A stretch of DNA of 64,000 nt from a virus: positions 1 through 64,000 of IMG/VR virus record IMGVR_UViG_3300035686_000005; one strand, given 5' to 3'. The translations under genes were made by a program, and so were the position numbers. A model generated the notes under the pieces. It was not told the DNA's origin, made no database searches, and saw nothing but the letters and a program-made list of their open reading frames with translations. Position 1 is the stretch's first letter. Every line of letters begins with the position of its first letter. Positions 6,788 to 53,266 of the stretch are shown one piece after another.

Positions 6788-7362
6788 TGGTATACTACCT
6801 CTACAATATCAGTGTTGTCGAGAAACATCGGTCTTAGCCACGTTAAAGTTACTTTATCAATCCGATAATCGACGGGATAAAGCGCTTTAACTCCATTCAC
6901 AGTAAATAAACTTAAATGTGGTTTTGTTGGTTCTTTAGTCAAAACGAATACAGTCTGTCCTAGTTGAGGCACAAACATCTCCCTATAAGAGGGGGACACA
7001 ACACCCGTGTCAGGTTCATCAGGGTTGTTGTTTATGGGATCGAGAATTACTCCCCTAGCCCTAAGTGTTGCAAGATCTATGTCTGCATTGCTATCAGAGG
7101 GAAGAGTGAACAGGAACCCATCTTTTTTGTCACCTCTGAACACACATTTATACGTGGTGGGTAGTCCAGATTTTGATTCGTTACACCAAAGATTAGTTTC
7201 AAAAGTGCCATTAACGGCAGTCTTGACTATGAAAGTCTGTTGGGGGTAATTGGTTTTATTGTCACGGTCATAGCTGCCAGGATGTAGCCTGAATTCTATT
7301 TCCAGACCCCCCCAAGCTTCCCCATTAATTCGTTCGACCTTACCCTTGACTTTTCTTAGCAC
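6784..7362 (-). CDS. hypothetical protein
   Basis: 192 aa, GTG start; the 16-mer box shared with the capsid-operon leader lies 26 nt upstream; internal motif copy read DKVTLTW. Confidence 0.6.
   Translation of the reverse strand: MLRKVKGKVERINGEAWGGLEIEFRLHPGSYDRDNKTNYPQQTFIVKTAVNGTFETNLWCNESKSGLPTTYKCVFRGDKKDGFLFTLPSDSNADIDLATLRARGVILDPINNNPDEPDTGVVSPSYREMFVPQLGQTVFVLTKEPTKPHLSLFTVNGVKALYPVDYRIDKVTLTWLRPMFLDNTDIVEVVYQ
6844..6856. repeat. TAAAGTWACTTTA copy (W=T)
   Basis: perfect; inside 6784-7362, read K-V-T-L. Confidence 0.95.
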
Positions 7363-7443
7363 TTTTGATAATGGCTATCTACGCTTAAAATAACACTACG
7401 AACAGAGATTACAGATTGAGTATTTATACTTATCAAAAATTTC

Positions 7444-7456
7444 TAAAGTAACTTTA
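7444..7456. repeat. TAAAGTWACTTTA copy (W=A)
   Basis: perfect; in the divergent intergenic region 7363-7530. Confidence 0.95.
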
Positions 7457-7530
7457 GTAAAACACTTGCCATCCGAAACGAGAGTAGCTAATATAAATAC
7501 AGACAGTCAAAAACAAGGTAAGAGAGACAG

Positions 7531-8754
7531 ATGGCTACTAAAACCGAATCCAACAAAAAATCAACCGCTAAGAAAGCAACAAAGACAAAGGACACACCAA
7601 AACAAGACAATCTGTTACTGGCTGGATTAGACAACGTAACAATCAGTGATGTGATGTATATCGGTATTGAAGGGGCGATCGACATGTTCGATTACCTCTG
7701 GAATTATGATAAATCTTGGTATGTTCGCAAAACCACTAAGCTGAATAAGGAACAATTGCAGCAGTATGAAAAATCTTTAACCGTTCCTAAAACTGGCAAT
7801 ACGAGCTATCTTCGCAATCTGAATCCTTTCTTAATATGGAAGAAAGATGGTAAGCATTATCTAATAAACGGTAACTCTCGTTTTCAGATGTATGAATCTG
7901 TCTATGAGCGCAATGACAATACAGAAATTTCCCCAATTGGTTATCAAATAGTTGAGGGTGAGCTAACTAAAGAGATTGTAGAGAGACTGCAATACAGCTT
8001 GAACGACACAACACGCCCCAACTCACCCATCGAGAAGTATAAGCGAATCATTGAGTATTTAAATCAAGGTTACGATCGCTCTTATATATGCCAATACTTT
8101 GATGTGTTGGAACAAGAGATAAGCAACGCCAAAACTCTGTTACAGAATCCGATTCCTGAACTGTTGGCAGACATGATTGACTCAGGTACTGCTACCACTG
8201 AAGGTGCTGTAAAGGTGATGCAGACGGCAAAGGCTTTAGAACTTGATCCGGAGATGATAATTGGTTTATCGCTAACTTTCTCCAAAAAAGGGAAAGTCAC
8301 TCAAGGTAGTGTAACAAAGTGGCGTAAGCATTATGAGGATGAGCAAGCCAGATTAAAGGCTGAAGCTGAAGCAGCTGAGCAAGCCAAACAGCAAGCCGAC
8401 GCTGAAGCGGCTGAGCAAGCTAAAGCAGCAGAGCAACGCCAAAATGTAAATGATGTTGCTGAAGAAACGGAGATATTAGATGAGGTCGTTAGAGAGTTTG
8501 ATGAATCTGAAACAGAAGAAGCGGAAACACCCGCAGTAATCGAAGTTCCTAAAATTGATATGTCTTCTCTCTTGGCTGAAACAAATCCTAGCCAGATAGG
8601 GTTAATGATGCGTATTGCTGCTCAGTACATTTCAAGCGATGCACTATCAGACGAAAAGCGATCCGAGATACATGAATCAATGAAAGCGTTACTCCTGACA
8701 ATCTCAAAGGATTTACCAGAGACAGAGAAAGCCAAGATTCAATCAGTACTGTAG
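7531..8754 (+). CDS. ParB/Srx-like N-terminal domain protein with acidic Ala/Glu/Gln tail (tentative)
   Basis: KHYLINGNSRFQMY resembles the ParB GxxR box; HTH-like middle region (ISNAKTLLQNPIPELLADMIDSG); architecture matches 22487-23902. Confidence 0.5.
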   Translation: MATKTESNKKSTAKKATKTKDTPKQDNLLLAGLDNVTISDVMYIGIEGAIDMFDYLWNYDKSWYVRKTTKLNKEQLQQYEKSLTVPKTGNTSYLRNLNPFLIWKKDGKHYLINGNSRFQMYESVYERNDNTEISPIGYQIVEGELTKEIVERLQYSLNDTTRPNSPIEKYKRIIEYLNQGYDRSYICQYFDVLEQEISNAKTLLQNPIPELLADMIDSGTATTEGAVKVMQTAKALELDPEMIIGLSLTFSKKGKVTQGSVTKWRKHYEDEQARLKAEAEAAEQAKQQADAEAAEQAKAAEQRQNVNDVAEETEILDEVVREFDESETEEAETPAVIEVPKIDMSSLLAETNPSQIGLMMRIAAQYISSDALSDEKRSEIHESMKALLLTISKDLPETEKAKIQSVL

Positions 8755-8759
8755 CGTCG

Positions 8760-8772
8760 TAAAGTAACTTTA
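8760..8772. repeat. TAAAGTWACTTTA copy (W=A)
   Basis: perfect; 5 nt after the stop of 7531-8754, before hairpin. Confidence 0.95.
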
Positions 8773-8778
8773 GCTCAT

Positions 8779-8800
8779 GCCTCCGAAAGGGGGCTTTTTT
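8779..8800 (+). terminator. intrinsic terminator
   Basis: GCCTCC-GAAA-GGGGGC followed by TTTTTT. Confidence 0.7.
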
Positions 8801-8802
8801 AT

Positions 8803-8831
8803 TTGACAATGTAAATACAAAAAGCTACAAT
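8803..8831 (+). promoter_or_regulatory. sigma70-like promoter
   Basis: TTGACA-N17-TACAAT. Confidence 0.65.
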
Positions 8832-8856
8832 TTAAAGACACCTAAATATTTTAGTC

Positions 8857-9294
8857 ATGAAATTTCCGAAATTCAACATGAAAAATTCAATCCATAAAAC
8901 CGCTCTAGCAATAGCTATAGCTTTCGCAATAGGACTAATATCACACTTGTATCATGACCAATACAAGTTCAATCCTATATTTTGGTATGTTACTGCCTTC
9001 TTAGACTGCATGTTTTGGGTAGTGATTTATTACCCTAACTATAGATGGCACAAACTCAAAACAGGACACAAATTTGTCTTGGTTATGGTGTGCATTCGTT
9101 TTTGTTGTTACTTTTTGCCTATTGATGTTCTAAGCTCTCCTCTGATAGTAGCTAGCATGAGGATTATAAGCCTGTTAATTATATTTGTGGTGGTGTTTTT
9201 TTGGGGCGATAATGATGATGATGGTAACGATAAAGAAAAGAAAGAGGTTAAGCCTAAAAAAAGAAAGTATTCTTTTATTCCTCAGAATAATTAA
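8857..9294 (+). CDS. membrane protein
   Basis: about four hydrophobic helices and a Lys-rich tail; canonical TTGACA-N17-TACAAT promoter at 8803-8831. Confidence 0.65.
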   Translation: MKFPKFNMKNSIHKTALAIAIAFAIGLISHLYHDQYKFNPIFWYVTAFLDCMFWVVIYYPNYRWHKLKTGHKFVLVMVCIRFCCYFLPIDVLSSPLIVASMRIISLLIIFVVVFFWGDNDDDGNDKEKKEVKPKKRKYSFIPQNN

Positions 9295-9301
9295 CTGGTT
9301 A

Positions 9302-9314
9302 TAAAGTAACTTTA
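9302..9314. repeat. TAAAGTWACTTTA copy (W=A)
   Basis: perfect; after the stop of 8857-9294, before hairpin 9321-9344. Confidence 0.95.
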
Positions 9315-9320
9315 GAGCAA

Positions 9321-9344
9321 GCCTCCCATAAGGGGGGCTTTTTT
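9321..9344 (+). terminator. intrinsic terminator
   Basis: GCCTCCC-ATAA-GGGGGGC followed by TTTTTT. Confidence 0.7.
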
Positions 9345-9381
9345 CATGGACATATACCCAAAAAGATTTTTTCAGAAACGC

Positions 9382-9411
9382 TTGACAGCTTGGTGCATAA
9401 GTAGCTACTAT
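9382..9411 (+). promoter_or_regulatory. sigma70-like promoter
   Basis: TTGACA-N18-TACTAT, 36 nt upstream of ATG 9448. Confidence 0.55.
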
Positions 9412-9447
9412 AAATACAGTTACAAATCACGGTTCAAGGAAAAACAC

Positions 9448-10347
9448 ATGGCTAACGCAACTTGGAATTATGGGACTGGCGTCAATGTTGAAGGTTTATC
9501 AACTTCTGAAATGCTGACAGCTGCTAATCTGGATTGGAATGTCAAAACATCACCTCTATTTTTTGGTGAGTTTGGGCAGCATGAAGTGCCAGGAATTAAG
9601 GGACTCTACCGAGAAGACACTAACGATTTTATCGATACTTTCAGTAACAGAGAGGTACGCAACAATAAACAAATTGTCAAGTTTTTTGAGAACCTTCTAA
9701 ACTTAGCCGATCTAAAAATAGAGACACTAGGACATATAAACAGCCGTGTAATTTACGCTAGCGCTCGGATGAGTCAGTACGATACAAACCTTAAAAATGT
9801 TGGTGATGTTACGCATCAAAGAATCATTCTCACAGATTCTCATCAGAATAATCAGGGATTTCGAGTTTACACACACGGCACAAGGTTGGTATGCACCAAC
9901 GGTATGGCTCAAAAAGTAAGCCAACAAGTTGGTATTGTGTCCCATACCGGGACGCTTAACAAAGACAAAGCACGGTTGCTTCTTAATGCTGCGGTTAACA
10001 CAGTAAAAAGACAAGCCAACGTTACCGAGTTTCTTGCAGAAAAAGCAATGACTATTCAAGAAGCTCAGTTGCAGCTGATTACTGCTTTTGGAAATCCGGA
10101 AAAATCCATTGATGAGCAACCAGCAATGGTTAAAACTTGTCTAGAGTTGTTTGATGGTAAAGGTCAAGGATCAGAACTGTTAAGCGCATACGGTACAGCA
10201 TACGGACTTCTTCAAAGTGTTACAGAATGGCAATCGCACCATAGCACGGCTAAAAGTCAGATTAACAGGTTTGAATCAATCCTTTCAGGAACATATGCCA
10301 CAAAAGCTATGGCTTTTGAGAAACAGCTAGTGAGAGCTTATCGATAA
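9448..10347 (+). CDS. DUF932-family protein
   Basis: start moved to ATG 9448 (AAGGA 8 nt upstream) because promoter 9382-9411 lies inside the longer ORF 9346-10347; DSHQNNQGFRVYTHGTRLVCTNGM resembles the DUF932 core. Confidence 0.6.
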   Translation: MANATWNYGTGVNVEGLSTSEMLTAANLDWNVKTSPLFFGEFGQHEVPGIKGLYREDTNDFIDTFSNREVRNNKQIVKFFENLLNLADLKIETLGHINSRVIYASARMSQYDTNLKNVGDVTHQRIILTDSHQNNQGFRVYTHGTRLVCTNGMAQKVSQQVGIVSHTGTLNKDKARLLLNAAVNTVKRQANVTEFLAEKAMTIQEAQLQLITAFGNPEKSIDEQPAMVKTCLELFDGKGQGSELLSAYGTAYGLLQSVTEWQSHHSTAKSQINRFESILSGTYATKAMAFEKQLVRAYR

Positions 10348-10365
10348 GCTAGCCTAGCTAATTGA

Positions 10366-10391
10366 GCCTACCCTTAACCGGGTAGGCTTTT
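10366..10391 (+). terminator. intrinsic terminator
   Basis: GCCTACCC-TTAACC-GGGTAGGC followed by TTTT. Confidence 0.7.
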
Positions 10392-10403
10392 CTATTTCTG
10401 GAC

Positions 10404-10416
10404 TAAAGTAACTTTA
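10404..10416. repeat. TAAAGTWACTTTA copy (W=A)
   Basis: perfect; after terminator 10366-10391, 10 nt before ATG 10427. Confidence 0.95.
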
Positions 10417-10426
10417 GGGGGTATCG

Positions 10427-11236
10427 ATGGAAGAAGCGATCGCAATGTGGGAAGGTGGAAAAGTCCTTAATGCAAGAAAAGGAAACTATGAAGACTACCG
10501 TGTTAGAGGTATGTTGTGTATGCACTGTCACCAAAGCGTATTTTGGCGTAAGTCATATAAAAAAGATGATGTCATATACAGCGCTGCTTGGTGCCATTTT
10601 CAAATTACTGAAGATACCAAGCTATGTGAGAAGAGACACCTCACAGACGAAACTAAGCGGCTTGTAGAGAAGCTTCAGCCAAAGGCTAGAGGGCAGCGTT
10701 TAGCTCTATTCAATTCGAGATTTTGGGACATCTTCTCACACGATAAGGACATACCCAAAGATTTTTACTTAGGGGTTAAAGAAAAAGCAATGTATGAACT
10801 GTCAGAACATTGTCGAAAACGATGGGACGTGAAGCAAATATTAAGCGTGTTGCCACAAAGGGTCAAAGACATTACTGATGCTGAGAACATCAGAAAAAAT
10901 GCATTAATACAATTTGCCAACCTAACAGAAAAGGACATCGAAATATTGTCCACACACTTTTTAGATATGAAGTATAACGTTTTACGTTACAAAATTTTGT
11001 GCGAAGTTGTTGAATGGCTAGGCACATCTAGCGCAAAAAATAGCTTTCATAAGGTCACAACCTTGGCATTTTTTAACGCGGTTGAGATAGCACCAAAACC
11101 AGTCAGAACAAATATGGTTGCAAACTTTATCCTAAATAGTCTCATAATGACTAAATGGGATCAAAACTTAGATGAGTTACCACAACCCAATAAGGGTATA
11201 GGTTTTGGACAGCCTAAAGTAACTTTAAAGAAATAG
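10427..11236 (+). CDS. hypothetical protein with CxxC zinc-finger-like N-terminus
   Basis: 269 aa, CMHCHQSVFW...WCHF...LCEKRH; C-terminus encodes motif copy PKVTLKK. Confidence 0.6.
   Translation: MEEAIAMWEGGKVLNARKGNYEDYRVRGMLCMHCHQSVFWRKSYKKDDVIYSAAWCHFQITEDTKLCEKRHLTDETKRLVEKLQPKARGQRLALFNSRFWDIFSHDKDIPKDFYLGVKEKAMYELSEHCRKRWDVKQILSVLPQRVKDITDAENIRKNALIQFANLTEKDIEILSTHFLDMKYNVLRYKILCEVVEWLGTSSAKNSFHKVTTLAFFNAVEIAPKPVRTNMVANFILNSLIMTKWDQNLDELPQPNKGIGFGQPKVTLKK
11215..11227. repeat. TAAAGTWACTTTA copy (W=A)
   Basis: perfect; last codons of 10427-11236 (KVTL); 9 nt upstream of the -35 at 11237. Confidence 0.95.
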
Positions 11237-11265
11237 TTGCACAATGCTGCATTTGTAGTTATAAT
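11237..11265 (+). promoter_or_regulatory. sigma70-like promoter
   Basis: TTGCAC-N17-TATAAT; near-identical layout to 61268-61296 (TTGCACAAT..ATTTGTAGTTATA). Confidence 0.6.
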
Positions 11266-11293
11266 CGATTTAGTGAGAGATTAGGCTAGGCAA

Positions 11294-11743
11294 ATGACAA
11301 GAGTATCGGCTAAATACATTCGGAGACTGGCAACACAATACGGGATTGAGATTACTGAACCGCTCAGATCTCAAGCCATCAAAGCTAAGTATGTTGAATT
11401 GATAGCCGATGCAATTTGCCAGGAACAAGGACGCATTGCTTACCAAGAGAAAGTTTTAGCATTTCAGGCAGAAATTGAAGAAGCCTGTGGATGTTTCTAC
11501 CATATGACAAATTTCAATAGTCTAATGCAGACTTGCGAAATCAGATACACAGCTGAAAAAACAACTGTTGGATATATCTCACAAGGAATGTTAGGTGTGT
11601 CCTATAGGCTCAGCTCAGATTGCAGAAATGTTTCACGCCCAGCTAAGACTGCTTTTGATGCAGCTGATGCGATAATCAACTGGCATATGAACCAACTCAA
11701 GCACTCACTATTTCCAGCTAAAGTAACTTTAGGTCAAAAATAA
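11294..11743 (+). CDS. hypothetical protein
   Basis: 149 aa; TTGCAC-N17-TATAAT promoter at 11237-11265; C-terminus encodes motif copy AKVTLGQK. Confidence 0.6.
11719..11731. repeat. TAAAGTWACTTTA copy (W=A)
   Basis: perfect; last codons of 11294-11743 (KVTL); 17 nt before ATG 11749. Confidence 0.95.
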
Positions 11744-11748
11744 AAATC

Positions 11749-13296
11749 ATGCTTGCAACAACAAACAATCAGTCTCAATCTCTTGTAATTTCCAATAGAC
11801 TTACGACTGAGCAAATAGAACTAATCAAACGCACTATTTGTAAAGGTGGAACAGACGACGAATTAAATTTGTTTATCCAACAATGCAACAGAACCGGATT
11901 AGATCCTTTCTCTAAACAAATCTATGCTGTAAAGCGTTATGACAGCAAGGCTAAAAGAGAGGTAATGAGTGTTCAGGTTTCTATAGATGGCTTGCGTTTA
12001 AACGCTCAACGTACAGGAAAATATCGAGGGCAGTTAGGAGCTTTTTGGTGTGGAATGGATGGGGAGTGGAAAGATGTTTGGTTGTTAGACAATCCCCCAG
12101 TAGCTGCCAAAATTGGCATTTTACGCTCTGATTTTTCAGAACCGCTTTGGCAAGTAGCCAGATATAAGAGTTATGTTCAGACCGTTCAGGGTGGCAGTCC
12201 TAATTCATTTTGGGCAAGAATGCCTGATATCATGTTGGCAAAATGCGCTGAAGCATTAGCGCTTAGAAAAGCGTTTCCTCAAGAGCTTAGCGGATTGTAT
12301 ATCAATGAAGAGATGCCCCCTGAATTTATCGAGGTCGAAAGCAACGTAGTTGTAGAACCGGAAGATGCACCGCAAAAAGAAGAAAGGGCACAACCCAAAA
12401 AAACCATTGTAATACCTACAAAAGAATCTGAGAAGACAACAGAGAAATTTGACCGGGATTACTGGATGCAACAAACCACCGATGAGCTGAAACGTCTTAC
12501 ATGGACTTCAGACAAAGGAAGAGACTATTTGATTGCAAACTTCAACGGTAAGCGTTCACGTCAAATTTTAACTGATGAAGAGTTGAAAGCATTTGCTCTC
12601 ATGCTTAAGGAAGAGAAAGCTCAAGAAAAATTAAACATTTCTGATGTTACTCTTTCTTACTTGAATGATGTTGCAAAGTTTTTTAACATCAGTCCACAAG
12701 TGTATCAAACCGAGATTAAGCGCTATACCGGAGATATGACTCAGATAATTTTTGAGTCTATTATGCGCGTCATGGTTACGGCGTTTACTAAGGATCGTGG
12801 TCTTGATTCTAAAGGAATTTGGGAAAACTTTGTAGAAGATGTTAAGCCACAAAAATACTCCTTTGAGTCAATCCAATCATGGGTTAATAAATTCTCCGAG
12901 ATCCCGTCAGATGATTCCGTACAATCTCCTGAAGAGTTCAAAGACCCTAACTATCTGTATGAAGTTGCAGAGATTCTATATGTAGATTCAGACGATCTTG
13001 ATGCAGAGATTGACAAGTATCAAGACAAATTAAGTCATTCAGACTATTTGGAAATTTTGGTTTGGATGGCTAAATGGTATGCAGATGCTGAAGCTAAGAA
13101 TGTTGAAATGGCTGAAGAAAGTTTCAATAAACATGTTGCTGTCAATGGTTATGCATTAGAAAGCATCGAAACTTGGAAAGATGCTTTTTACACAGCAACC
13201 GACAACGATTACTTACCTGTTGAGGAATATGAACAAACAAAAAGACAAAATCTCAAGCTTCTTGACAAAGATGTTACAGATGCAATAAGCGACTAA
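11749..13296 (+). CDS. Bet/RecT-family single-strand annealing protein with long C-terminal extension
   Basis: [42 protein letters not shown]...[16 protein letters not shown] fits the phage Bet N-terminal pattern; terminator at 13317-13340. Confidence 0.7.
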
Positions 13297-13316
13297 CAAC
13301 AATTCAACTGACAAAA

Positions 13317-13340
13317 AGCGCTCTTAACGGGGCGCTTTTT
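13317..13340 (+). terminator. intrinsic terminator
   Basis: AGCGCTC...GGGGCGCT followed by TTTT; follows the Bet gene. Confidence 0.65.
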
Positions 13341-13346
13341 ACTTTC

Positions 13347-13359
13347 TAAAGTTACTTTA
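13347..13359. repeat. TAAAGTWACTTTA copy (W=T)
   Basis: perfect; last TTA is the stop of the TIR gene (minus strand). Confidence 0.95.
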
Positions 13360-14004
13360 TTCTATTCCATTGATAATCTTAAGTAGTTTTCTGAAGCTTC
13401 CTTCAAAACTATCTGATTCTCTGAAGAATAGCCAATTGATATTTGCAATAGTATCTGGGATGTCTGCAATGATTTCTCGCCTCAAGATAGGAATAATTTT
13501 TTTACCACGTATTCTTGCATACTCTAGTTCATTAATGCAGACATCAGATATTGCATAGTCTTCAGACAGGACACATATGAAAAAGCATGATGAGTCGATG
13601 CCTTCTATAATGACCTCTTTCCAATAGTCGCTTGATTGTATATCTTCATAGTCTACCCAAGCATCATGTCCAGACTTTTTAAGCTGGTAGTGCAACCGTT
13701 CTACAAAGTCTTTATCTTTTCGGCTGTAAGAGATAAACAAATCATTGCAGAGCGCATACTTCTTTATGACTGTTGTAATCAATCCGTTTGCAACTATCCT
13801 ACGCTCTCCGGACATTGACTTAAGATGTGTCGCAACTATACCAAGATGTTCAACAGCACCAACAAAGCTACCTATTTGGATAATGTCACCTTTTTTGTAG
13901 TAGCCTCTAGTCCGGACAATTGCGCCCCTAATTAGATCGTTGATTAAGTCTTTGCAGACATACACGGTTGCAGCTGCCAGAAATACAGACAGATTTTCAT
14001 TCAT
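13357..14004 (-). CDS. TIR-domain protein fused to an MscS-like beta-domain
   Basis: C-terminal LFISYSRKDKDFVERLHYQLKKSGHDAWVDYEDI...VCINELEYA...KIIPIL (TIR_2 pattern, Glu retained); N-terminal GDIIQIGSFVGAVEHLGIVATHLKSMSGERRIVANG (MscS beta-domain pattern). Confidence 0.75.
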   Translation of the reverse strand: MNENLSVFLAAATVYVCKDLINDLIRGAIVRTRGYYKKGDIIQIGSFVGAVEHLGIVATHLKSMSGERRIVANGLITTVIKKYALCNDLFISYSRKDKDFVERLHYQLKKSGHDAWVDYEDIQSSDYWKEVIIEGIDSSCFFICVLSEDYAISDVCINELEYARIRGKKIIPILRREIIADIPDTIANINWLFFRESDSFEGSFRKLLKIINGIE

Positions 14005-14008
14005 TTTC

Positions 14009-14021
14009 TAAAGTAACTTTA
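14009..14021. repeat. TAAAGTWACTTTA copy (W=A)
   Basis: perfect; between divergent starts 14004 (-) and 14045 (+). Confidence 0.95.
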
Positions 14022-14044
14022 GAGCTATACTTAAATAGTAATTG

Positions 14045-14434
14045 ATGGAAGGATATATGGAAACTACGGGATTAGAACTATTGAGAAGCCATGCAAGATC
14101 TTTAGAAGATCTCATCAAAAAGATGACTGATGATGAAGACGTGATACTTATAGATACTGGCTGGTGTTTAGGTCTTGTTGCCCAAAATATTCTTGAATGT
14201 TTTGAGATAATAGCATCAGAATTGCCCGAAACATCAAAACCTTTTTTAGCTAATGATATACATACAGTAGCAGAGCTTTTAGAGAGGGCAGCATTTATTG
14301 CTACCGAATCAGAATCACACATTGATTTGTTGGCTATGTCCTACTTGATAGCTAGAGCTTATGCCAAAACCCAATCAATAGATAGAAAGTATGGTCAGCA
14401 CGTCATACAAGTATTAGAAGCTGAAAGCAATTAA
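14045..14434 (+). CDS. hypothetical protein
   Basis: ATG 14045 (track starts at TTG 14042); divergent from the TIR gene with only motif 14009-14021 between them. Confidence 0.55.
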   Translation: MEGYMETTGLELLRSHARSLEDLIKKMTDDEDVILIDTGWCLGLVAQNILECFEIIASELPETSKPFLANDIHTVAELLERAAFIATESESHIDLLAMSYLIARAYAKTQSIDRKYGQHVIQVLEAESN

Positions 14435-14752: not shown

Positions 14753-14756
14753 TGGC

Positions 14757-42899: not shown

Positions 42900-42903
42900 T
42901 GAA

Positions 42904-45380: not shown

Positions 45381-47142
45381 ATTGATATTTTGTTAAAGGT
45401 TTACCTAGGCTTCTAGAAGACCCTGGCTTTTTGTGATGTTTCTGATAGATAACAATTGCAGACTCTGCAAACACCAAAGCAAAATAAAAATCGTCGTCAT
45501 GATCATTTGGTCTTATGAATTGACCTGTTTTGATATCTCTCTTGATCGACGTTACATGCTTCTTAAACTTTCTGTGAGGTATGCAATCTAATCGATAGTT
45601 GCAATCAATAAAAGATAAAAATATCTCTTCCTGAAAAAGTGTATTGCTGATTGCAAAGCAGTCAACTTCTAAACCACCATATTCTACCTTAATTTTTGCA
45701 ACATCAGTCATTATGTTGCGTTGATCAGCCATTACAAGTACACCTTGAGAAGCTTTTTCTAATTCGTTTGCAGACTTGCGCCCTGGTTCATTGTCAATTA
45801 CTGCGAAGTCAATTTGATTTGATTGCAGATATGAGATAATATTGCTCTCTTCAATTTCAATTACTGCCCTAATATTTTTTCGTTTGAAGTCCTTAGCATC
45901 TACTTCTAAATCTACCAGGTAATGTGTCCCTGTTCCTTGATCGATGCCCACGATCCGGATAGGGTTGTCTATCTCATATGGCTTGAGATTGACAACCGCT
46001 TCATAGTCTGATGGAGTAATACCAGTTACAGTAAACTTCGATTCTAATCCTAATTTGTTTTGGTGATAAATCAATACAGATTCAGGATCTAATCCGTCTT
46101 TAATCAAATCTCTGAGTCTATACTCATCATCTGGCACCTTAAGCAAGGGACTGAGATAAATACTGATTGAAGGGTAGTATATTGTGTCTTCCGGTATACT
46201 ATCCAGAAATTCGTCGGCTGATAGCAGAGATTGTCTTGAATAAAGCTGACAGTCTTTAATGTTGGTTGTGATGTCTGCATTGCAATTGCTACACGCTACG
46301 AATGGATTGTCCTCAGTTCCATGAAAATCTAAGATTTCGCCTCTATTATTAAAATACTCAAAATTACCCTCTAAAGTTACTTTAGGCTTAAGTAAGTTTC
46401 CTAACGGATGTAACCAGGAAAGTTCCTTACACACAGGACACATTACACCCGGTTCAAAATTGTGCTTGGCGTCTCTGATACCTTGCTCAATACCAGTACC
46501 GCTTCCTGGAGTTCCTAGCTCCCGTATAGGTTTTGATTTTAAACGGGATGCGCCAAGTCTAGGAGAAAGATCAACGTTAGTTTTCCAACTTGATTTTTCT
46601 TCATAATATAATTTACTAGCTTGGAAAGCATTTTGCTCTTTACCTTCTGCCGATCCTCCGCTCTTATCTTCGCTGGATGAATTAGCATGAGTGAAATTCG
46701 CTATTGCCATCCCCATTTTGAAGCGTCTTACACTGTCTCTTTCAACCTTGTAAGGTGTTTGTTGCTTCCAATGCTTGACCATAGCTTGGAACTGGCTAGG
46801 CTGTTGGTTTAGCATACTTTGACCAGATGCATATACCCAACCTATGTTAATCTGTCCATTAATTAAATCATCGATTGCGACCAAATAATTAGCCAAAGAC
46901 TTACTTATCTGGCTTGCTCCCGTTGTCAATACATGCCTAAGTCTGTTATCGGCTGTCAGTCGTAACTGTTGCTTAAACCATAAAGTTACTTTAATCTTTT
47001 CGCCATTCTCATTGCAACCATAGTCGATAATTCTCTGAGTTGCATTGATTGCACCTATCCGTTTAAGTGCATTCTGCAAATAAGTATTTTTGCGACGGTT
47101 TTTATACTGCCGTGCTATGTCTGCAATGGTTTGACCTGGCAT
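45355..47142 (-). CDS. terminase large subunit (GpA-like)
   Basis: 595 aa; P-loop-like TTGASQISKS, Cys pairs CPVCKE...CSNCNAD, nuclease-like IVGIDQGTGTHYLV. Confidence 0.75.
   Translation of the reverse strand: MPGQTIADIARQYKNRRKNTYLQNALKRIGAINATQRIIDYGCNENGEKIKVTLWFKQQLRLTADNRLRHVLTTGASQISKSLANYLVAIDDLINGQINIGWVYASGQSMLNQQPSQFQAMVKHWKQQTPYKVERDSVRRFKMGMAIANFTHANSSSEDKSGGSAEGKEQNAFQASKLYYEEKSSWKTNVDLSPRLGASRLKSKPIRELGTPGSGTGIEQGIRDAKHNFEPGVMCPVCKELSWLHPLGNLLKPKVTLEGNFEYFNNRGEILDFHGTEDNPFVACSNCNADITTNIKDCQLYSRQSLLSADEFLDSIPEDTIYYPSISIYLSPLLKVPDDEYRLRDLIKDGLDPESVLIYHQNKLGLESKFTVTGITPSDYEAVVNLKPYEIDNPIRIVGIDQGTGTHYLVDLEVDAKDFKRKNIRAVIEIEESNIISYLQSNQIDFAVIDNEPGRKSANELEKASQGVLVMADQRNIMTDVAKIKVEYGGLEVDCFAISNTLFQEEIFLSFIDCNYRLDCIPHRKFKKHVTSIKRDIKTGQFIRPNDHDDDFYFALVFAESAIVIYQKHHKKPGSSRSLGKPLTKYQYGYQQRKR
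46372..46384. repeat. TAAAGTWACTTTA copy (W=T)
   Basis: perfect; inside the terminase large subunit (PKVTLEG). Confidence 0.95.
46981..46993. repeat. TAAAGTWACTTTA copy (W=T)
   Basis: perfect; inside the terminase large subunit (IKVTLWF). Confidence 0.95.
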
Positions 47143-47717
47143 TAATTGTACTGAGTTGCATATTCAGTAGCAAAGTCAGAAACTGCTACTCTATTTTGGA
47201 TCTGTTCTGCCACTTCATACAACTGATCGAGTACATATTCTGGTATGTATTCGGAGTTGTTTAAAAATTCAAAGAATATACCCAATTCTTCCCTGACCCT
47301 GCTCTCTGCTATCTGCTGAATTTTGACCTCTACGGGTGCATAAAGACCCAATATCTTAGATCGTTCTTTTGATATCTTTAAAGCCGTCTGAACTGCATCT
47401 AAATCACCGTTTTCAATCTGATCGTAAATCTTATCAAGATAATCATCATAGCGTTTAAGTTCAAGTCCTCTGAGAGCATGTACTGATTGGGTGTTTTCGA
47501 TGCAGATTTGATTCAATGCCCGGTTGCAATCATCAAGAGCTAACCTGTAGGAATATCGAGGTAAATCGAATTCTCTCCTGATCATCTCTTGAATTTCTCG
47601 GTATGTTTTTCCTTGTGCCCTAAGTTCTAAAGCACGGTTAGACCTAATGGCAATTCTTGTGTCCCTTGGTTGCGGTCTTACTAAACCTCGTCTCGTACTT
47701 GCTCGTAATTCTGACAT
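47142..47717 (-). CDS. terminase small subunit (by position)
   Basis: 191 aa, HTH-like ALELRAQGKTYREIQEMI; 1-nt overlap with the large subunit. Confidence 0.5.
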   Translation of the reverse strand: MSELRASTRRGLVRPQPRDTRIAIRSNRALELRAQGKTYREIQEMIRREFDLPRYSYRLALDDCNRALNQICIENTQSVHALRGLELKRYDDYLDKIYDQIENGDLDAVQTALKISKERSKILGLYAPVEVKIQQIAESRVREELGIFFEFLNNSEYIPEYVLDQLYEVAEQIQNRVAVSDFATEYATQYN

Positions 47718-47878
47718 ATTTAGTTTAAATAAAAAGTCTATAAAAACTATAAGAACCTCCCCACATATCAGCTTATGCTCTTAGTAGCGGCTGATCAGGA
47801 CAGGTCATATAGTGAGGCACTTAAAACCAGTAACAGGATCTAAGAACCAATTATTTAATTTTTTGTACCTCACCTACT

Positions 47879-47907
47879 AGTTTAAAGTAACTTTATTGAT
47901 TTGTCAA
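47879..47907 (-). promoter_or_regulatory. promoter-like element upstream of the terminase genes
   Basis: minus strand TTGACA-N17-TAAACT with motif copy 47883-47895 filling the spacer. Confidence 0.4.
47883..47895. repeat. TAAAGTWACTTTA copy (W=A)
   Basis: perfect; lies in the 17-nt spacer of the minus-strand TTGACA/TAAACT promoter-like element upstream of the terminase genes. Confidence 0.95.
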
Positions 47908-47920
47908 TAAAGTAAATTTT
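47908..47920. repeat. degenerate motif copy TAAAGTAAATTTT
   Basis: 2 mismatches; part of palindrome 47890-47913. Confidence 0.6.
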
Positions 47921-47945
47921 TTGGGTTAATATTTCTAATTCCTTA

Positions 47946-48167
47946 TCACTCATCAACAAACCAACCTATCCCCGGAATGTATCTAACCGTTTTACCTTGC
48001 TCTAATTCTTCTGTTGTCAGATCATAATCCCCATACCATTCCGGAATAGGTAAGTCTTTTCGGAGAATACTTTTATCCAAAAATGAAAACCCATCATCAC
48101 CCGGTGTAGTTAACAATCTTTCCATCTCTATTTCCAACTGTTGCTGACGCTCCTCATCATTTACCAT
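47946..48167 (-). CDS. hypothetical protein
   Basis: 73-aa acidic ORF downstream of the polymerase. Confidence 0.5.
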   Translation of the reverse strand: MVNDEERQQQLEIEMERLLTTPGDDGFSFLDKSILRKDLPIPEWYGDYDLTTEELEQGKTVRYIPGIGWFVDE

Positions 48168-48182
48168 AATATCCCTCTCTTT

Positions 48183-50411
48183 TCAAACAAATAAACTCAA
48201 CTGCTCAACTTCCTCTTTCAGGGGTTCAGGTTTAAATTCATCCAGAAAGCAAGCCATCTCTTCATACATTTCTCGAAGTATGTCTGCATAATGAGTAACG
48301 TCATAATCTCCCGTTGTAGTTGGCTGTCCATCAATTCCAATGTAGTAGCTTACCGTGTCTCGTTCCTGTCCAAAACCAAGATTAATCAGTTTTACTTCTC
48401 CTACTCTAATTTTACGAGTTACTGTTAGCTGATCCTTTGGGTATTCTCCAGAAACTAGTAAAGCCAGTGTCTCTTGGTAGTAATCGATTGCAGACTTAGG
48501 CGACTCAGCATACAGTTCTAAAAACCTCACTTGGAATTTCTTCTCAAGAGGTAACTTATCTCGTTTCTTGTATCTTCCTTTGGCGGTCAAACCAAACTTT
48601 TGTTTTTTAGGATTCCACTCAACCTTGATGTAGTTTTTCTTGATATTGCCTAGGTCTAGATCAATCCCGAATTTCATACAAGCTTGCATTATTCGATTGT
48701 AGGAAACCTTTTCGGCTCCGAAATTATCCACTATCCATTGATAAAGTTTTGGGTCTTTTGAAACTGATTTTTCAATGAACTTTTTACCGTTTGTTGTCTT
48801 AAATTTGTAGCTTTTCTCAAAATTTCTCGGTACATCCTCAGGCGGGATAAACAAAATTTTATTGACAGCTTCTAAATCAAGTTTCGATCCAGATGGTATA
48901 TTTTCTTTGATTTGTTCAACTATTGCAACGGCTGAAAGTAGCTTATCACTGGGATTAGGAGGAAGCTTTTTAAGTGTTTCCTGAGATATTGGATAATACT
49001 TGTGTATGTCTGTTTTGTCTGTCTTGACGTATACAGAATCAGTATCTGTCAGAACAACTTGACCACCCATAGCCTCAACAAATCCCATAGCCCACTTAAG
49101 TCTTGCACGAGCAAACAAAGTAACCATTGCAGCTGCAAAGCTATCACCATAAGGAATCTGGGCTTTTAAAGAACCGTATGCACTATTTAGAACTGGCTTA
49201 ATTGCAGTTGTCAAATCAATCTCAGCTTGAGTGATATTTTCCTTATACTTGATTGCCATCCTATACTCAACCCCTTGTTGCATGATTGCCAACATAAGCA
49301 TGTCAGGATCGTGTTGAGAATGAATTCCATATTGCATCATGCATGAAGGATATTGACCTGAAAAGTCACACCCTGCAACATCCGTGTGAATTCCACTCAC
49401 TGTATGAGTAATCGCCCCCTGAATACCATAGGGGACATTAGGCGGCAAGCTTTTTGTATTGGCTTCCCCATAGTAATCGTCTAAATTTGAATTCCACTTT
49501 GAAGCATTACCCGATGTTGCCAACTTTTGCAAGTTGTATTTAGGAAAGTAAACCAACTGATAATAGAGAGACGGCATTAAAAAATCGGCTAGCAATTGAG
49601 TATCTTCCAAGTCATAAAAAAGGTACTCTTTAACTGATTCCCAATTGCCCGTTCTATATGCCTCCTCAAGACCTTCTAAACCTAAATCGAGTCTAGGTGT
49701 GTCCCTTAGTCCAAGCTGTATTGGAAGTTCCTTTAAGCTGTACTTGGTAAACTTTCTGAGTACTGAGTCATAGGCAATCGCTAGTTGGTAAATATCAACG
49801 TGATCGCATCGCTTACCATTGAATTTGCAATACACGGGATAGAACCCGATGTCTTGATAACGTCCAGCCAACTCCGCAGCCGCAAACCTGTATTGATAAT
49901 CGTAACTAATAAAGAATGGACTTCTTATTCCTAACTGCTGTGACTTGTGAAATAGATAGGACAAATCGAAGTTTGTTCCATTGAATGTAAAAAGAATATC
50001 CGGTTGCTTCTTATTGAGAAATCGAAACAGAATCTCTAACATTTGAAGTTCTGATTCTTCTCTAATAAAAACTTTTTGACCCTTCTCATTCATTATCCCG
50101 ATAGCTTTTAGCTGAGAAGATTTAGCCCTCAATTCAGGGTCATCAGTTAATATCTTGGTTGTTTCAATATCAAGGTAGACTTTGGTTAAATTCTCATAAG
50201 GCTCTAAAGTTACTTTAGATTGCCACGTAGGAACGGTCTTTGATGTCACACTAAATATGTCAATACAGCGTTCAGGAGGTGTGATAATATTACCTTTATA
50301 GACAAAAATCCATTCCCTGACTTCATCACAATGCAATTGTCTATCAGCTAACTCGTTATAACGACTTTTAATTAATTGGTACTCGGCTTCAGTCAATTCT
50401 CTATCGTCCAT
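48183..50411 (-). CDS. polB: family B DNA polymerase
   Basis: Exo I DIETT, Exo II FNGTNFDLSYL, Exo III YLFYDLEDT, motif A DFSGQYPS, motif B KPVLNSAYG, motif C LTDTDS. Confidence 0.9.
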   Translation of the reverse strand: MDDRELTEAEYQLIKSRYNELADRQLHCDEVREWIFVYKGNIITPPERCIDIFSVTSKTVPTWQSKVTLEPYENLTKVYLDIETTKILTDDPELRAKSSQLKAIGIMNEKGQKVFIREESELQMLEILFRFLNKKQPDILFTFNGTNFDLSYLFHKSQQLGIRSPFFISYDYQYRFAAAELAGRYQDIGFYPVYCKFNGKRCDHVDIYQLAIAYDSVLRKFTKYSLKELPIQLGLRDTPRLDLGLEGLEEAYRTGNWESVKEYLFYDLEDTQLLADFLMPSLYYQLVYFPKYNLQKLATSGNASKWNSNLDDYYGEANTKSLPPNVPYGIQGAITHTVSGIHTDVAGCDFSGQYPSCMMQYGIHSQHDPDMLMLAIMQQGVEYRMAIKYKENITQAEIDLTTAIKPVLNSAYGSLKAQIPYGDSFAAAMVTLFARARLKWAMGFVEAMGGQVVLTDTDSVYVKTDKTDIHKYYPISQETLKKLPPNPSDKLLSAVAIVEQIKENIPSGSKLDLEAVNKILFIPPEDVPRNFEKSYKFKTTNGKKFIEKSVSKDPKLYQWIVDNFGAEKVSYNRIMQACMKFGIDLDLGNIKKNYIKVEWNPKKQKFGLTAKGRYKKRDKLPLEKKFQVRFLELYAESPKSAIDYYQETLALLVSGEYPKDQLTVTRKIRVGEVKLINLGFGQERDTVSYYIGIDGQPTTTGDYDVTHYADILREMYEEMACFLDEFKPEPLKEEVEQLSLFV
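50205..50217. repeat. TAAAGTWACTTTA copy (W=T)
   Basis: perfect; inside polB (SKVTLEP). Confidence 0.95.
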
Positions 50412-50467
50412 TAGCTTATTCTCCTTTAGGGGATATTAAATCCCCGTGCTTGCACTTTGAATAAATC

Positions 50468-50496
50468 TCTCTTGTAGCTATAATAACTACAAGAGA
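50468..50496. promoter_or_regulatory. 10-bp inverted repeat enclosing a TATAAT in the polB/primase divergent region
   Basis: TCTCTTGTAG-CTATAATAA-CTACAAGAGA. Confidence 0.6.
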
Positions 50497-50515
50497 TTAA
50501 TTTGGCTACACACCT

Positions 50516-53266
50516 ATGCAAACAACACTTTCTCGTTCTGACCTTAACGGTCATCAAACTGCATCTGAAACACAATATGGATATGCCGTCAATCGTAAAG
50601 TAATAGCAAAACCTTTAGATAGAAGCCCTAATTTTTGGACAATCCTAGACGAATGGACAATCGAAACTGAATCTGAAGCGATTAAAGCACAATTGGACGG
50701 GTTTGACGTTATATGGAGTCTTATAGACCGTCAAGAGTTCGCACAAGCGATAAAAGAATTCAAAACTGGTGAGTTTAAAAACGTCAAAGGTAAGCCAACA
50801 GATAGTAAAGGGAGGCGAACGATCGATAATAGTCTAATTAAGTACTGTGACACTGTACTTATCGATTTCGACCTTTGCCCCCTTAGCAGCGTTCCCAAAT
50901 CAATTATAGACCAAAGTTGGTTAATGTGTCCCTCTGCATCTCAGACGACTCCTAGTGCAACGGGGGATGTTAGCAAGATGCATTTTATACATAAGATGCC
51001 CAACCGCATACCCGCTAAGTATGCAGCTGCCTACAGGAAAGCATATTTAGACCGTGTGGCAAACGGACTTGCATACGATGAGAAGTGCATCGACCCTAGA
51101 AGAGAGTTCTATGGTAAAAATCCAGAGTTCACAGATCAAAGATTCTATAAAGTAACTTTAGAGAATCGGATTCCTCTGGAGTTACACACAGAAATTCTAA
51201 CCGAGGTAATGAACCTTGACAGAAAAAATCCGTATGGTAATGTACCTGAGAGTGTTGGTGAATTTCTAGAACTCAACAAAGAACCTAAAACCAAAAAGAG
51301 GGGACGCCCTAAAAAGAATGCAGACATATCTGCATTGGTCGATCAACATCTGTTAAGCTTCTGTGATTTGGAAGAGATCGTAAATGGGTTATTTCCTGAT
51401 AGCACTTGGAATAAAAAGGGATCATCGCCCAATGTTTTCGATCAATACGAGACAGTTAACCCATTAAGACCAGATGCAAAAAATGCTACAGCGTTTGCGA
51501 TCGAACATAGCAGCGAAAGCAATCGGATACTCTGTCATTACAAGGCTAGTGACTTCAACTGTTCGTTGTATGAATTCTATGCACGATACAAATTGTTTCA
51601 GCGTGGTGACTCGGATGCAGAAACCAAAAACATTAAATCATTCGTAAGCGGTAAAGGTTTTGTTGATTTGGTTGGGGATATCTGCAATCAGTTAGGTATC
51701 GATGAGTACGAGTTTCCAGAAGAGAAAAAGAAGAAAAAACCAAAACCCCCAACAGACGTACTCTTGAAAATTGCTGAGAACTTCGATCGGAGTGTTATGA
51801 AGTTCTGCAACCTTAACACTAAAGTCTTCTATTTCATCTATAACCGTAACTCTGGAGTATGGGATTACAACTCATCTTTAACCTGGTATGGTGCTGAATT
51901 AAGACGGCTTCTAGAAGACTTTAACTCACTACTCCTAGAAGAAAATCCGGAGTATCAAGAATTGGAAGAAGGAGAAGTTAGCAAGATGGTTTCGTTCATA
52001 AAAGAACATCATGCTAACAACAATTGGATCTTGTCTCAAATCCCATCATTCAGAAACGAATGGATCGGGTTAAGTGATTGCGATTACAACACTAAAACTA
52101 ACGAGTTTGCAGAGAAAAGCCCAAATCACAATCTGTATTTTCGTTTCTCCTTTTCGCGTAAGGATTTTAATGCAACCATCAACATAAAGCAGCGCTACCT
52201 AGAGGCTTTTGAGTTTGCAACTCAAAACAAAACAACAGCCGAGATTCTTTGGCTCTATAAATGTGCAGAAGTCTTGAAGCTAGGTAAAAAAGCTTGGAGA
52301 GCTTTAGTAGTGTCTGGAGCAAGCCGTACCGGAAAATCATCATTTTGTCGATCGCTCATGTATCTAGAGGCATCGGGTGAGAAAGCTCTAAACGTAATCG
52401 CGGAAGTAAACCAAGATGCTTTAAACACGGATTTTGCATTCAGCCGTGTTAACGCATATACAACGGCGTTGCACTTCCCAGAGTTAAGGTTATACACCAA
52501 ACAGGATGTGAACTGGTTACTTCAAATTGTAGACAGTTCTGGTGGAATAAACATCAATGAAAAGTTCAAGCCGATAGTGAATATTGACAGAGATTTTCCT
52601 GTGTATATGTCCATCCAAGATGACTTTAAGATTCCGGCTGGCAACGTTGGTGTTGAATCTCGTTTGCTTTTTACCGAGATAAAACTGCCAGCCAAAGCAG
52701 GTTTACCAATTGCTGATGGAGGCATATGGTACAAAGAACAAGAAAATATATCTTGGTGTAAGGAACTTAACGACCTATATCACGATCCAGAAATGCAAAA
52801 ACAATTGTTTCTTTGGATTCTTCATAACGAAAACACACAGGACATAGAACGCCGACTTGATGAGTTAGTTGGCTCTAAAGAAATGAAAGATCAACAAAAA
52901 TCAGTTCTAGTCCAAAACTCACCATTAACAGAAATGTTTGAAGAGTATGAGATCGAAGTTACTGGGGATGAAAATGATTTTGTTGTATCTAAGGACTTCA
53001 GAGCGTTAGCCAAGAAACATTTAGAGTCTGAAGAGGGTATGAGTCGTGTGTCCTCTGGTTACGTGTCTGGAGTCATACAAAACCATATTCAGAAAAAGTT
53101 TCCCAATGAGTGGGAAAGCATTAAGAAATATGTAACCAAAGGAGAAAAAATAGATTCATTTATCTGGAAAGATGGTAAATCAATCAGGGTGATTAAAGGA
53201 ATCAGATTTACGCCCAAAAAGATGAATGGAGTCAGGACACAGGAAACGGAGTTAGCTACTTTCTAG
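50516..53266 (+). CDS. primase-polymerase / SF3 (D5-like) helicase
   Basis: 916 aa; Walker A VVSGASRTGKSS in the C-terminal half, DxD-like VLIDFDL in the N-terminal half; divergent from polB. Confidence 0.65.
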   Translation: MQTTLSRSDLNGHQTASETQYGYAVNRKVIAKPLDRSPNFWTILDEWTIETESEAIKAQLDGFDVIWSLIDRQEFAQAIKEFKTGEFKNVKGKPTDSKGRRTIDNSLIKYCDTVLIDFDLCPLSSVPKSIIDQSWLMCPSASQTTPSATGDVSKMHFIHKMPNRIPAKYAAAYRKAYLDRVANGLAYDEKCIDPRREFYGKNPEFTDQRFYKVTLENRIPLELHTEILTEVMNLDRKNPYGNVPESVGEFLELNKEPKTKKRGRPKKNADISALVDQHLLSFCDLEEIVNGLFPDSTWNKKGSSPNVFDQYETVNPLRPDAKNATAFAIEHSSESNRILCHYKASDFNCSLYEFYARYKLFQRGDSDAETKNIKSFVSGKGFVDLVGDICNQLGIDEYEFPEEKKKKKPKPPTDVLLKIAENFDRSVMKFCNLNTKVFYFIYNRNSGVWDYNSSLTWYGAELRRLLEDFNSLLLEENPEYQELEEGEVSKMVSFIKEHHANNNWILSQIPSFRNEWIGLSDCDYNTKTNEFAEKSPNHNLYFRFSFSRKDFNATINIKQRYLEAFEFATQNKTTAEILWLYKCAEVLKLGKKAWRALVVSGASRTGKSSFCRSLMYLEASGEKALNVIAEVNQDALNTDFAFSRVNAYTTALHFPELRLYTKQDVNWLLQIVDSSGGININEKFKPIVNIDRDFPVYMSIQDDFKIPAGNVGVESRLLFTEIKLPAKAGLPIADGGIWYKEQENISWCKELNDLYHDPEMQKQLFLWILHNENTQDIERRLDELVGSKEMKDQQKSVLVQNSPLTEMFEEYEIEVTGDENDFVVSKDFRALAKKHLESEEGMSRVSSGYVSGVIQNHIQKKFPNEWESIKKYVTKGEKIDSFIWKDGKSIRVIKGIRFTPKKMNGVRTQETELATF
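51148..51160. repeat. TAAAGTWACTTTA copy (W=A)
   Basis: perfect; inside the primase/helicase gene (YKVTLEN). Confidence 0.95.

Follow-up and report, generated by a model that had tools for sequence, protein, structure and literature searches.

The Cluster O mycobacteriophages (Corndog and relatives) carry a 17-bp palindrome, 5'-TGTTCGGNNNCCGAACA, in 34 copies in a genome of ~70 kb; its function is unknown, and the phage, which is not obviously temperate, encodes a protein with a ParB-like domain (PMC4351075). Cluster A mycobacteriophages such as L5 and Bxb1 contain 13-bp stoperators, 20 to 30 per genome, that are dispersed and mostly intergenic (PMC6550527, PMC9283540), and on the IncP plasmid RK2 the ParB-family cytidine triphosphate (CTP) clamp KorB loads at short palindromic OB operators and represses at a distance by sliding (PMC11790492). 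Here, we analysed a 13-bp palindrome, TAAAGTWACTTTA (TAAAGT-W-ACTTTA, also written TAAAG-TWA-CTTTA), that recurs throughout the cyanobacterial virus IMGVR_UViG_3300035686_000005, hereafter G0, with emphasis on the copies that lie inside genes. The stretch analysed, referred to as the window, comprises positions 1-64,000 of the 65,376-bp whole record, and its DNA comes from a biocrust metagenome (two DNA contig holders listed, no RNA holder).

The window contains 66 exact matches to TAAAGTWACTTTA, compared with 0.02 expected from dinucleotide shuffles, and the whole record contains 68. Allowing one mismatch raises the latter number to 69, i.e., there is a single extra near-copy genome-wide. With invariant TAAAG/CTTTA arms, a 3-nt spacer and tens of copies of which few are degenerate, the set has the same form as the iterated palindrome of Cluster O. 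Searching the literature for the 13-mer returned unrelated matches only. In a greedy set of open reading frames (ORFs), 48 of the window copies lie at gene boundaries, where they often provide the TAA stop codon and/or adjoin the next ATG, and 18 lie inside genes; a 19th internal copy is found at genome position 65037, beyond the window. The sites are 25-fold enriched in intergenic DNA, and the dyad is extended weakly by its flanks to cTC-motif-GAg, each flanking position being matched in roughly half of the copies.

The copies are spaced far more evenly than expected. The mean spacing is ~950 bp and the largest gap 2,322 bp, compared with a mean largest gap of 4,551 bp under random placement, and the coefficient of variation is 0.56 versus 0.98 (5000 simulations, none as even). 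Without the internal copies, gaps of 5.4 and 5.6 kb would remain. When the boundary copies were held fixed and the internal copies were placed at random coding positions, the mean largest gap was 4.5 kb (P<=0.0002), and a sum-of-squared-gaps test with fixed boundary copies gave P<=0.0002 in G0 and in each of three further genomes that are introduced below (G1, G2 and G3). Because the internal copies even out the spacing in these tests, the in-gene copies are demonstrably gap fillers between the boundary copies. Part of them reside in long genes (tape-measure-like, polB, primase, terminase) and others in runs of overlapping small genes that offer no room at their borders.

An earlier, sequence-only reading of the window had stressed that the internal copies are always translated K-V-T-L. 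We checked all 18 positions against the ORFs, and every copy indeed starts at codon position 3 (xxT AAA GTW ACT TTA); the ten copies listed as having W=T on the coding strand were exactly right, as was the copy at 62280, which reads ..TA AAG TTA CTT TAG and closes its ORF with K-L-L-stop. The additional meaning attached to this constancy was not supported in G0. Frame 1 of the motif opens with a TAA stop, and frame 3 holds TAA if W=A. Frame 3 is open if W=T, as [NTA]-AAG-TTA-CTT-[TAY], but then five residues ([LIV]KLLY) are fixed instead of four and rarer codons are used. The codon usage of the phage predicts a 6.9:1 ratio of exact motifs in the KVTL frame to those in the alternative (~1 in 8 in the alternative), and background 13-mers four mismatches away show a frame ratio of 2.3 (~1 in 3 in the alternative); the p-value for 10 out of 10 KVTL among the W=T copies is then ~0.26 to ~0.03. 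KVTL exclusivity extends to three other genomes, with exceptions only in two short ORFs of 51 and 59 aa, probably not real genes, and when pooled over genomes the preference exceeds simple availability, as expected if sites are placed where the protein is least disturbed. The ORF set contains 19 KVTL tetrapeptides (0.48 expected from composition), every one of them encoded by the motif. Essentially, the constancy of K-V-T-L is mostly forced, and we see no reason to assign a function of its own to the peptide, which is a by-product of the DNA site. For annotation, this is a warning that a conserved tetrapeptide in a phage enzyme, such as KVTL, can merely reflect a signal in the DNA.

From codon usage, only ~0.008 in-frame copies per genome are expected by chance, and orthologous genes indicate that the copies are maintained. 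The closest relative is L131, whose large terminase is 63% identical to that of G0 and whose motif is TAAAG-(TSA or CGA/TCG)-CTTTA (variant TAAAGCGACTTTA), with zero W-centred copies. Four of the G0 internal sites, those at 51148, 50205, 46372 and 43261, occur at the same codons in L131. The G0/L131 codon identity over 2,079 conserved residues is 0.38 overall (K 0.52, T 0.29, L 0.15), whereas at the shared sites the codons AAA (4/4), ACT (3/3) and TTA (4/4) are all identical, for which the product of chances is ~1e-6; synonymous positions beside these sites differ. The central base at the shared sites is always W in G0 and S in L131. The peptide, KVTL at all four sites in G0, is also KVTL in L131 in polB (50205) and the large terminase (46372), and it has changed twice, to KVAL in the primase/helicase-like gene (51148) and to KATL in ORF 42904-43989 (43261), in both cases where the variant motif demands it. 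The sequence-only reading had proposed nucleotide-level selection able to override the protein, to be sought in an alignment of orthologues, and the frozen AAA, ACT and TTA codons of L131 bear this out.

The same reading had counted ordinary synonymous variation across the 13-mer, or absence of the peptide between conserved flanks, as evidence against such selection, and on this point the result is divided: the region that G0 and L131 have in common holds nine internal sites in G0, of which four are kept and five are absent from L131 and lineage-specific, for example the large-terminase (TerL) site at 46981, where L131 has QVTK. Individual sites are therefore replaceable. They arose without indels, as illustrated by the terminase segment EKIKVTLWF in G0 versus EKLQVTKWF, and there is no indel at 46981, 50205 or 51148 relative to the orthologues. 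In the locus L139, whose motif is a 14-bp variant, the polB position retains the peptide KVTL in non-motif codons (AAA GTT ACA CTA), and L139 and L140 have two sites of their own motif type in common. Judging from these alignments, the sites behave as functional DNA elements that are conserved at short distance and replaced at long distance.

This behaviour also bears on an origin of the copies by mutation or selfish spread, either as a mobile mini-palindrome similar to repetitive extragenic palindromes or miniature inverted-repeat transposable elements (REP/MITE-like) or by biased repair of near-matches, as proposed for the cyanobacterial repeat HIP1 (GCGATCGC). Such an origin would fit the perfect uniformity of the copies, with almost no one-off variants, and the presence of the motif in unrelated phages; moreover, HIP1 shows that palindrome iteration is possible in cyanobacterial systems, and relatives of G0 are HIP1-rich. 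The internal sites nevertheless arose without indels relative to orthologues, intergenic enrichment, even spacing and positional conservation are left unaccounted for, and the motif is as good as absent from the host genomes examined (described below), so that we regard this origin as highly improbable.

The sequence-only reading had also suggested that promoters, processing sites or borders between domains may be located at the internal copies, which is, in our view, scarcely credible. TAAAGT does resemble a -10 hexamer (TAnnnT) with A13 at the canonical +1 distance when read from the sequence, and several sites lie in variable loops. However, a palindromic promoter would fire both ways, and many boundary copies are directly followed by a terminator. 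The alignment columns at internal sites show average conservation (percentiles 0.07 to 0.79) that is not border-like, and variable positions are not clearly favoured. As RNA, the bare 13-mer does not fold (0.0 kcal/mol), and the copies turn over between relatives and instead fill gaps.

Cultured relatives of the window genes were not found by megablast and tblastn against 50,697 cultured phage records, and an IMG/VR search for related loci with the terminase alone or its alignment yielded nothing. Terminase homologues occur in metagenomes and in cyanobacterial metagenome-assembled genomes (MAGs) named Waterburya and Chroococcidiopsis. One of these homologues belongs to G3 (L134-L137), a 69.8-kb contig of the Chroococcidiopsis MAG whose terminase is 49% identical to that of G0 and which has ~30 genes in common with it. 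G3 contains 70 or 71 W-centred motif copies, and the remaining ~6 Mb of the MAG contains one; Chroococcidiopsis-like cyanobacteria of biocrusts are candidate hosts. Other loci carry variants, namely TAAACCGGTTTA in L138, TAAAG-CGCA-CTTTA in L139, TAAAG-YAYR-CTTTA in L140, L206 and L208, and TATAG-TWA-CTATA in L205. The identical 13-mer is present in two further IMG/VR genomes, in 67 copies in G1 (47.8 kb, with a P22-type portal and polA) and in 21 copies in the T7-like G2 (41 kb), which also has CTA/TAG motif centres. G0 shows no blastn, blastp (E<1) or small family-profile similarity to G1 or G2. Both of the latter hold pentapeptide-repeat genes typical of cyanobacteria, and their polA matches to cultured phage records were uninformative. 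In 401 cyanobacterial genomes, we found 0 to 6 motif copies each, like a reversed-pattern control; these copies lie mostly within conserved genes and have no common neighbouring regulator. By these counts, the motif is a phage-side signal and not a host-wide repeat like HIP1.

The relatives also differ in other short palindromes. G3 contains CGATCG 236 times (23x expected), L131 and L138 contain zero GATC in 21.8 kb each, and HIP1 occurs at 1.6-2.2 per kb in L139 and L140 and twice in G0. These differences suggest different hosts or different methylation/restriction pressures.

Because exact dyad symmetry and exact copies are combined with a distance-limited spacing, the sites would be read by a dimeric DNA-binding protein that acts on duplex DNA over ~1-2 kb. 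We consider it reasonably probable that the in-gene copies are members of a spaced, genome-wide array of DNA sites that serve as loading sites for a phage-encoded dimer of the ParB/KorB type; a phage ParB/KorB-family protein is the most likely ligand, as we infer. The ~68 duplex-DNA sites are kept exact at ~1 per kb and never more than ~2.3 kb apart. Most are located at gene boundaries, at no cost to the phage. If two boundaries lie too far from each other or genes overlap, a site is built within the gene by point substitutions, and it takes only the always-open frame, in which the fewest residues are fixed, resulting in K-V-T-L. According to this proposal, the protein would load at each palindrome and slide or spread over a limited distance, thereby silencing, timing or organising the whole genome, and because of its limited reach a site would be needed every 1 to 2 kb. 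Spacing, orthologous persistence and recurrence together point to such a distance-limited, DNA-bound function, for example a sliding clamp, and if a clamp is involved, the need for sites would be strong enough to write them in-frame into polB, terminase and tail genes.

G0 encodes two candidate readers, at 7531-8754 and 22487-23902. The protein encoded at 7531-8754 is predicted to fold like ParB/KorB/Noc, with an N-domain and a helix-turn-helix (HTH). Its protein-atlas neighbours are ParB/HTH_ParB clusters, and its AlphaFold (AF2) model, built on 12 homologues (predicted local distance difference test score 79.6), matched ParB-CDP (E 7e-8), Noc (E 1e-6) and KorB (8qa9) in Foldseek, with the best superposition on KorB (template modelling score, TM(target), 0.65). 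The paralogue encoded at 22487-23902 matches the family profile with E 6.5e-25. A word-index homologue search with the ParB-like protein retrieved only itself, and neither the protein nor its profile retrieved anything meaningful when PDB sequences were searched. In its presumed CTP boxes, the residues G114, N115 and R117 (NGNSR) and N158, D159 and R162 (NDTTR) are invariant; these motifs are box-like but non-canonical compared with GERRxR and ENxxR. G1 encodes a distant homologue (hhalign 91.5%, E 8.6e-7; with atlas support), the only protein link found between G0 and G1/G2, and G2 encodes a canonical ParB_N + HTH_ParB protein according to Pfam. In every lineage examined (G0, G3, G1, G2 and L201-L208), the ParB-like gene has a copy of the respective motif variant 30-100 nt upstream, and in G1 two copies lie within this interval.

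In G1, a podovirus-like cyanophage unrelated to G0, ten motif copies are located within the 2 kb immediately upstream of the ParB-like gene (L126:1297-3368, genome 41297-43368), which may be a regulatory or centromere-like hub. A further protein with HTH_ParB according to Pfam is encoded a few genes upstream of the ParB-like 1 gene in L201 (2970-3842) and L202 (7730-8782); at the corresponding position, G0 shows no syntenic gene of this kind.

Several observations weigh against a phage-encoded ParB/KorB-type reader. Neither the 7531-8754 protein nor its paralogue has any Pfam match at E<1, to ParB_N and HTH_ParB included, and the box that should read GERRxR reads NGNSR. The presumed recognition helix does not clearly track the motif type: it is SQQTVSNAKAL in L131 (S centre) and SQQTLSNAKAL in L201 (W centre). 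As most gene boundaries have a site anyway, a site upstream of parB is weak evidence. A symmetric duplex site would also not predict strand asymmetry. At co-directional gene boundaries of the window and G1-G3, however, the central base is A on the sense strand in 83 versus 38 cases, and the + strand of the 21.8-kb L139 locus has 10 CGCA versus 0 TGCG spacers, CGCA always being in sense orientation. The boundary bias and the one-way L139 spacer suggest some strand-specific component. Finally, the identical 13-mer is found in G0/G3, G1 and G2 although the ParB-like protein of G0/G3 has only a remote relationship to that of G1 and no detectable one to that of G2. This fits poorly with a reader encoded by the phage, and a host factor could take its place.

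In that alternative, a cyanobacterial protein reads TAAAG-N3-CTTTA, its phages accumulate sites and the variants reflect different hosts. It would explain why three lineages without blastn, blastp or small-profile similarity have the same 13-mer and why closer relatives of G0 differ both in motif variant and in host-like oligonucleotide signature (HIP1 richness, GATC absence). Against it speak the single copy in the Chroococcidiopsis MAG outside the G3 contig and the control-like counts in the 401 cyanobacterial genomes, a sample that may not include the true hosts. We consider a host factor unlikely.

The strand biases would also fit a role at the RNA level. The transcribed motif could form a hairpin, be processed or serve as a stop/restart junction, and the copies inside genes would then be tolerated accidents. 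A centre A on the sense strand yields a second TAA in another frame, TG directly follows 12 copies to give TAA-AGT-WAC-TTT-ATG, and 27 of the 45 terminator-like hairpins of G0 have a motif copy within 40 nt. This hairpin association is absent in G1 and G2, internal copies show no centre-A bias, and full CTC/GAG flanks, which give a hairpin of -6.4 kcal/mol, occur in 2 of 68 copies; as stated above, the bare 13-mer is unfolded, and the search against Rfam gave no family match. In-gene accidents would be ~2000 times too frequent, the orthologous codons are kept with frozen synonymous sites and the placement evens out the spacing. We consider RNA-level punctuation very unlikely. At window positions 58137-58190, a terminator-like hairpin that is GC-rich and bidirectional is flanked by one copy with W=A and one with W=T.

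In a stoperator-type alternative, a non-ParB repressor, e.g., a small ribbon-helix-helix (RHH) or HTH protein, could block transcription elongation or initiation genome-wide, as does gp71 in mycobacteriophage L5. The geometry is comparable, with 13-bp sites every ~1-2 kb that lie mostly in short intergenic spaces, overlap stop or start codons and vary from genome to genome, and this fits the published 20 to 30 sites per genome with a cognate diverging consensus (PMC6550527). In L204 (95-140), the motif is located exactly between TTGACA and TAGAGT hexamers that are 17 nt apart, upstream of the ParB-like gene, in a classic operator-within-promoter geometry; in addition, G0 has a weak RHH_4 match, and L139 and L140 encode HTH_3 proteins. 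Stoperators are asymmetric and co-oriented with transcription, whereas the sites described here are palindromic. No integrase or other sign of lysogeny appeared in a Pfam tally of 84 ORFs, most of which have no match. The motif type does not follow phage relatedness (G3 has the G0 type, L131 does not), and no small DNA-binding protein is common to G0 and G1 or G2. We think such a repressor quite unlikely.

Returning to a ParB/KorB-type clamp, a more far-reaching version is that it coats or silences the whole, apparently lytic genome from ~70 sites and that the shared 13-mer could let the protein of one phage act on the genome of another. This is speculative and, to us, rather unlikely; if true, co-infecting viruses would have in the 13-mer a common 'address' through which they could cross-regulate, exclude or exploit each other.

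The coordinates of the internal copies and of the candidate reader genes are compiled in Table 1. Seven of the 18 internal copies (6844, 11215, 11719, 21649, 37071, 41100 and 45321) are within 60 nt of a gene end or start, and the start codons of the ORFs holding 21649 and 41100 lack confirmation by orthologues. The gene names used in the sequence-only reading held in part: polB and the portal are supported by Pfam and the large terminase by distant PF05876 homologues and its place beside the portal gene, whereas tape measure and primase/helicase derive solely from size and position.

Table 1. Motif copies and candidate reader genes in the window (window positions; ORF context from the greedy ORF set)
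Feature	Position	Strand	Context
Whole set, 66 exact TAAAGTWACTTTA copies in window (68 in genome)	458..63391	.	
Internal copy	6844..6856	-	ORF 6784-7362 (192 aa), 60 nt before stop; KVTL
Internal copy	11215..11227	+	ORF 10427-11236, 9 nt before stop; KVTL
Internal copy	11719..11731	+	ORF 11294-11743, 12 nt before stop; KVTL
Internal copy	17898..17910	+	Mid-gene, ORF 17596-18180; KVTL; coding-strand W=T
Internal copy	18368..18380	+	ORF 18180-18905; KVTL; coding-strand W=T
Internal copy	21649..21661	+	Codons 12-16, ORF 21614-22015; N-terminal extension absent from G3 orthologue
Internal copy	24577..24589	-	ORF 24277-24681; KVTL
Internal copy	27044..27056	-	ORF 26519-28807 (762 aa; weak Glyco_hydro_19 match); KVTL
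Internal copy 1 of 1011-aa ORF 33633-36668	34305..34317	-	Tape-measure-like by size and position
Internal copy 2 of ORF 33633-36668	36285..36297	-	
Internal copy	37071..37083	-	Codons 3-6, ORF 36678-37088 (MIKVTL...); start backed by orthologues starting MI/MF
Internal copy	41100..41112	-	Codons 11-14, ORF 40830-41141; orthologue not found, start putative
Internal copy	43261..43273	-	ORF 42904-43989; L131 variant (KATL) at same codons; G3 copy <=3 codons away
Internal copy	45321..45333	-	Codons 17-20, Mu-type portal gene 44124-45380; lineage-specific
Internal copy	46372..46384	-	Large-terminase-like gene 45355-47142 (..NLLKPKVTLE..); kept in L131, centre G
Internal copy	46981..46993	-	Large-terminase-like gene 45355-47142 (..EKIKVTLWF..); substitutions without indel; L131 = QVTK
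Internal copy	50205..50217	-	polB 48183-50411 (..SKVTLEPYEN..); kept in L131, centre C
Internal copy	51148..51160	+	916-aa primase/helicase-like gene 50516-53266; L131 variant motif at same codons, KVAL
Terminal copy	62280..62292	+	End of ORF 62057-62293, K-L-L-stop; sole third-frame use
Predicted ParB/KorB/Noc-fold protein, 407 aa, candidate reader	7531..8754	+	Motif copy at 7444, 75 nt upstream
Paralogue of ParB-like protein, 471 aa	22487..23902	+	Motif copy at 22374, ~100 nt upstream

Further features of the genome are of note. The gene at 13357-14004 (-), which has TIR_2/TIR and MscS beta-domain Pfam matches, has a motif copy on either side, at 13347 and at 14009. Other Pfam matches of G0 include a D12-class adenine methyltransferase, VRR-NUC, RecT and a T5orf172/MUG113 protein. 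A 127-bp repeat is present at the genome ends (window 1-127; genome 65250-65376). We dropped it as a biological feature, i.e., as a direct terminal repeat, because its length equals a common assembler k-mer; a circular assembly is most likely, not physical ends.

Compared with described systems, the G0 motif resembles HIP1 in being a highly iterated palindrome that occurs inside and outside genes, and HIP1 is found in some G0 relatives, but HIP1 is a host-genome-wide 8-mer, whereas the 13-mer is virtually absent from the cyanobacterial genomes. Noc and parS sites are likewise palindromic (14-16 bp) and read by a ParB-fold HTH, and Noc is among the fold matches of the G0 protein. They are, however, chromosomal sites with megabase-scale spacing that serve division-site or segregation control and do not belong to a 65-kb virus. 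Noc has about 70 dispersed sites. The OB operators of KorB are also short palindromes with a degenerate central base, and it is KorB on which the G0 protein superposes best. RK2 contains about a dozen OB sites. In G0 there are ~70, OB sites are not known in-frame in essential genes, and no KorA-like partner was identified in G0.

Stoperators share with the G0 sites the 13-bp size, the dispersion and a consensus that diverges among relatives, in their case together with their reader (PMC6550527), and their effect is genome-wide silencing (PMC6550527, PMC9283540). They differ in that they are asymmetric and co-oriented and in that their reader is the immunity repressor of a temperate phage, which binds as a monomer, whereas the G0 sites are palindromic and no lysogeny genes were seen in the Pfam tally.

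The closest analogue is the Cluster O palindrome, and our finding belongs with the already-reported, unexplained iterated phage palindromes. The two sets have in common the invariant inverted arms, the 3-bp spacer, the near-absence of one-off variants, the location between ORFs, near 5' ends and clearly within genes, and the absence from host genomes (PMC4351075). They differ in sequence and host phylum, and G0 has twice as many copies. On the G0 side, the central base is constrained, the even spacing and gap-filling are shown, and the motif varies between close relatives while being identical in unrelated lineages. To such palindromes, reported before and never explained, this case adds an even spacing for which genes have been altered where gaps would otherwise remain, frozen synonymous sites together with amino acids that change along with the motif variant, drift of the motif among close relatives, and one exact 13-mer that recurs in cyanophage lineages unrelated to each other, each with a ParB-family gene; it also names proteins and DNA to examine.

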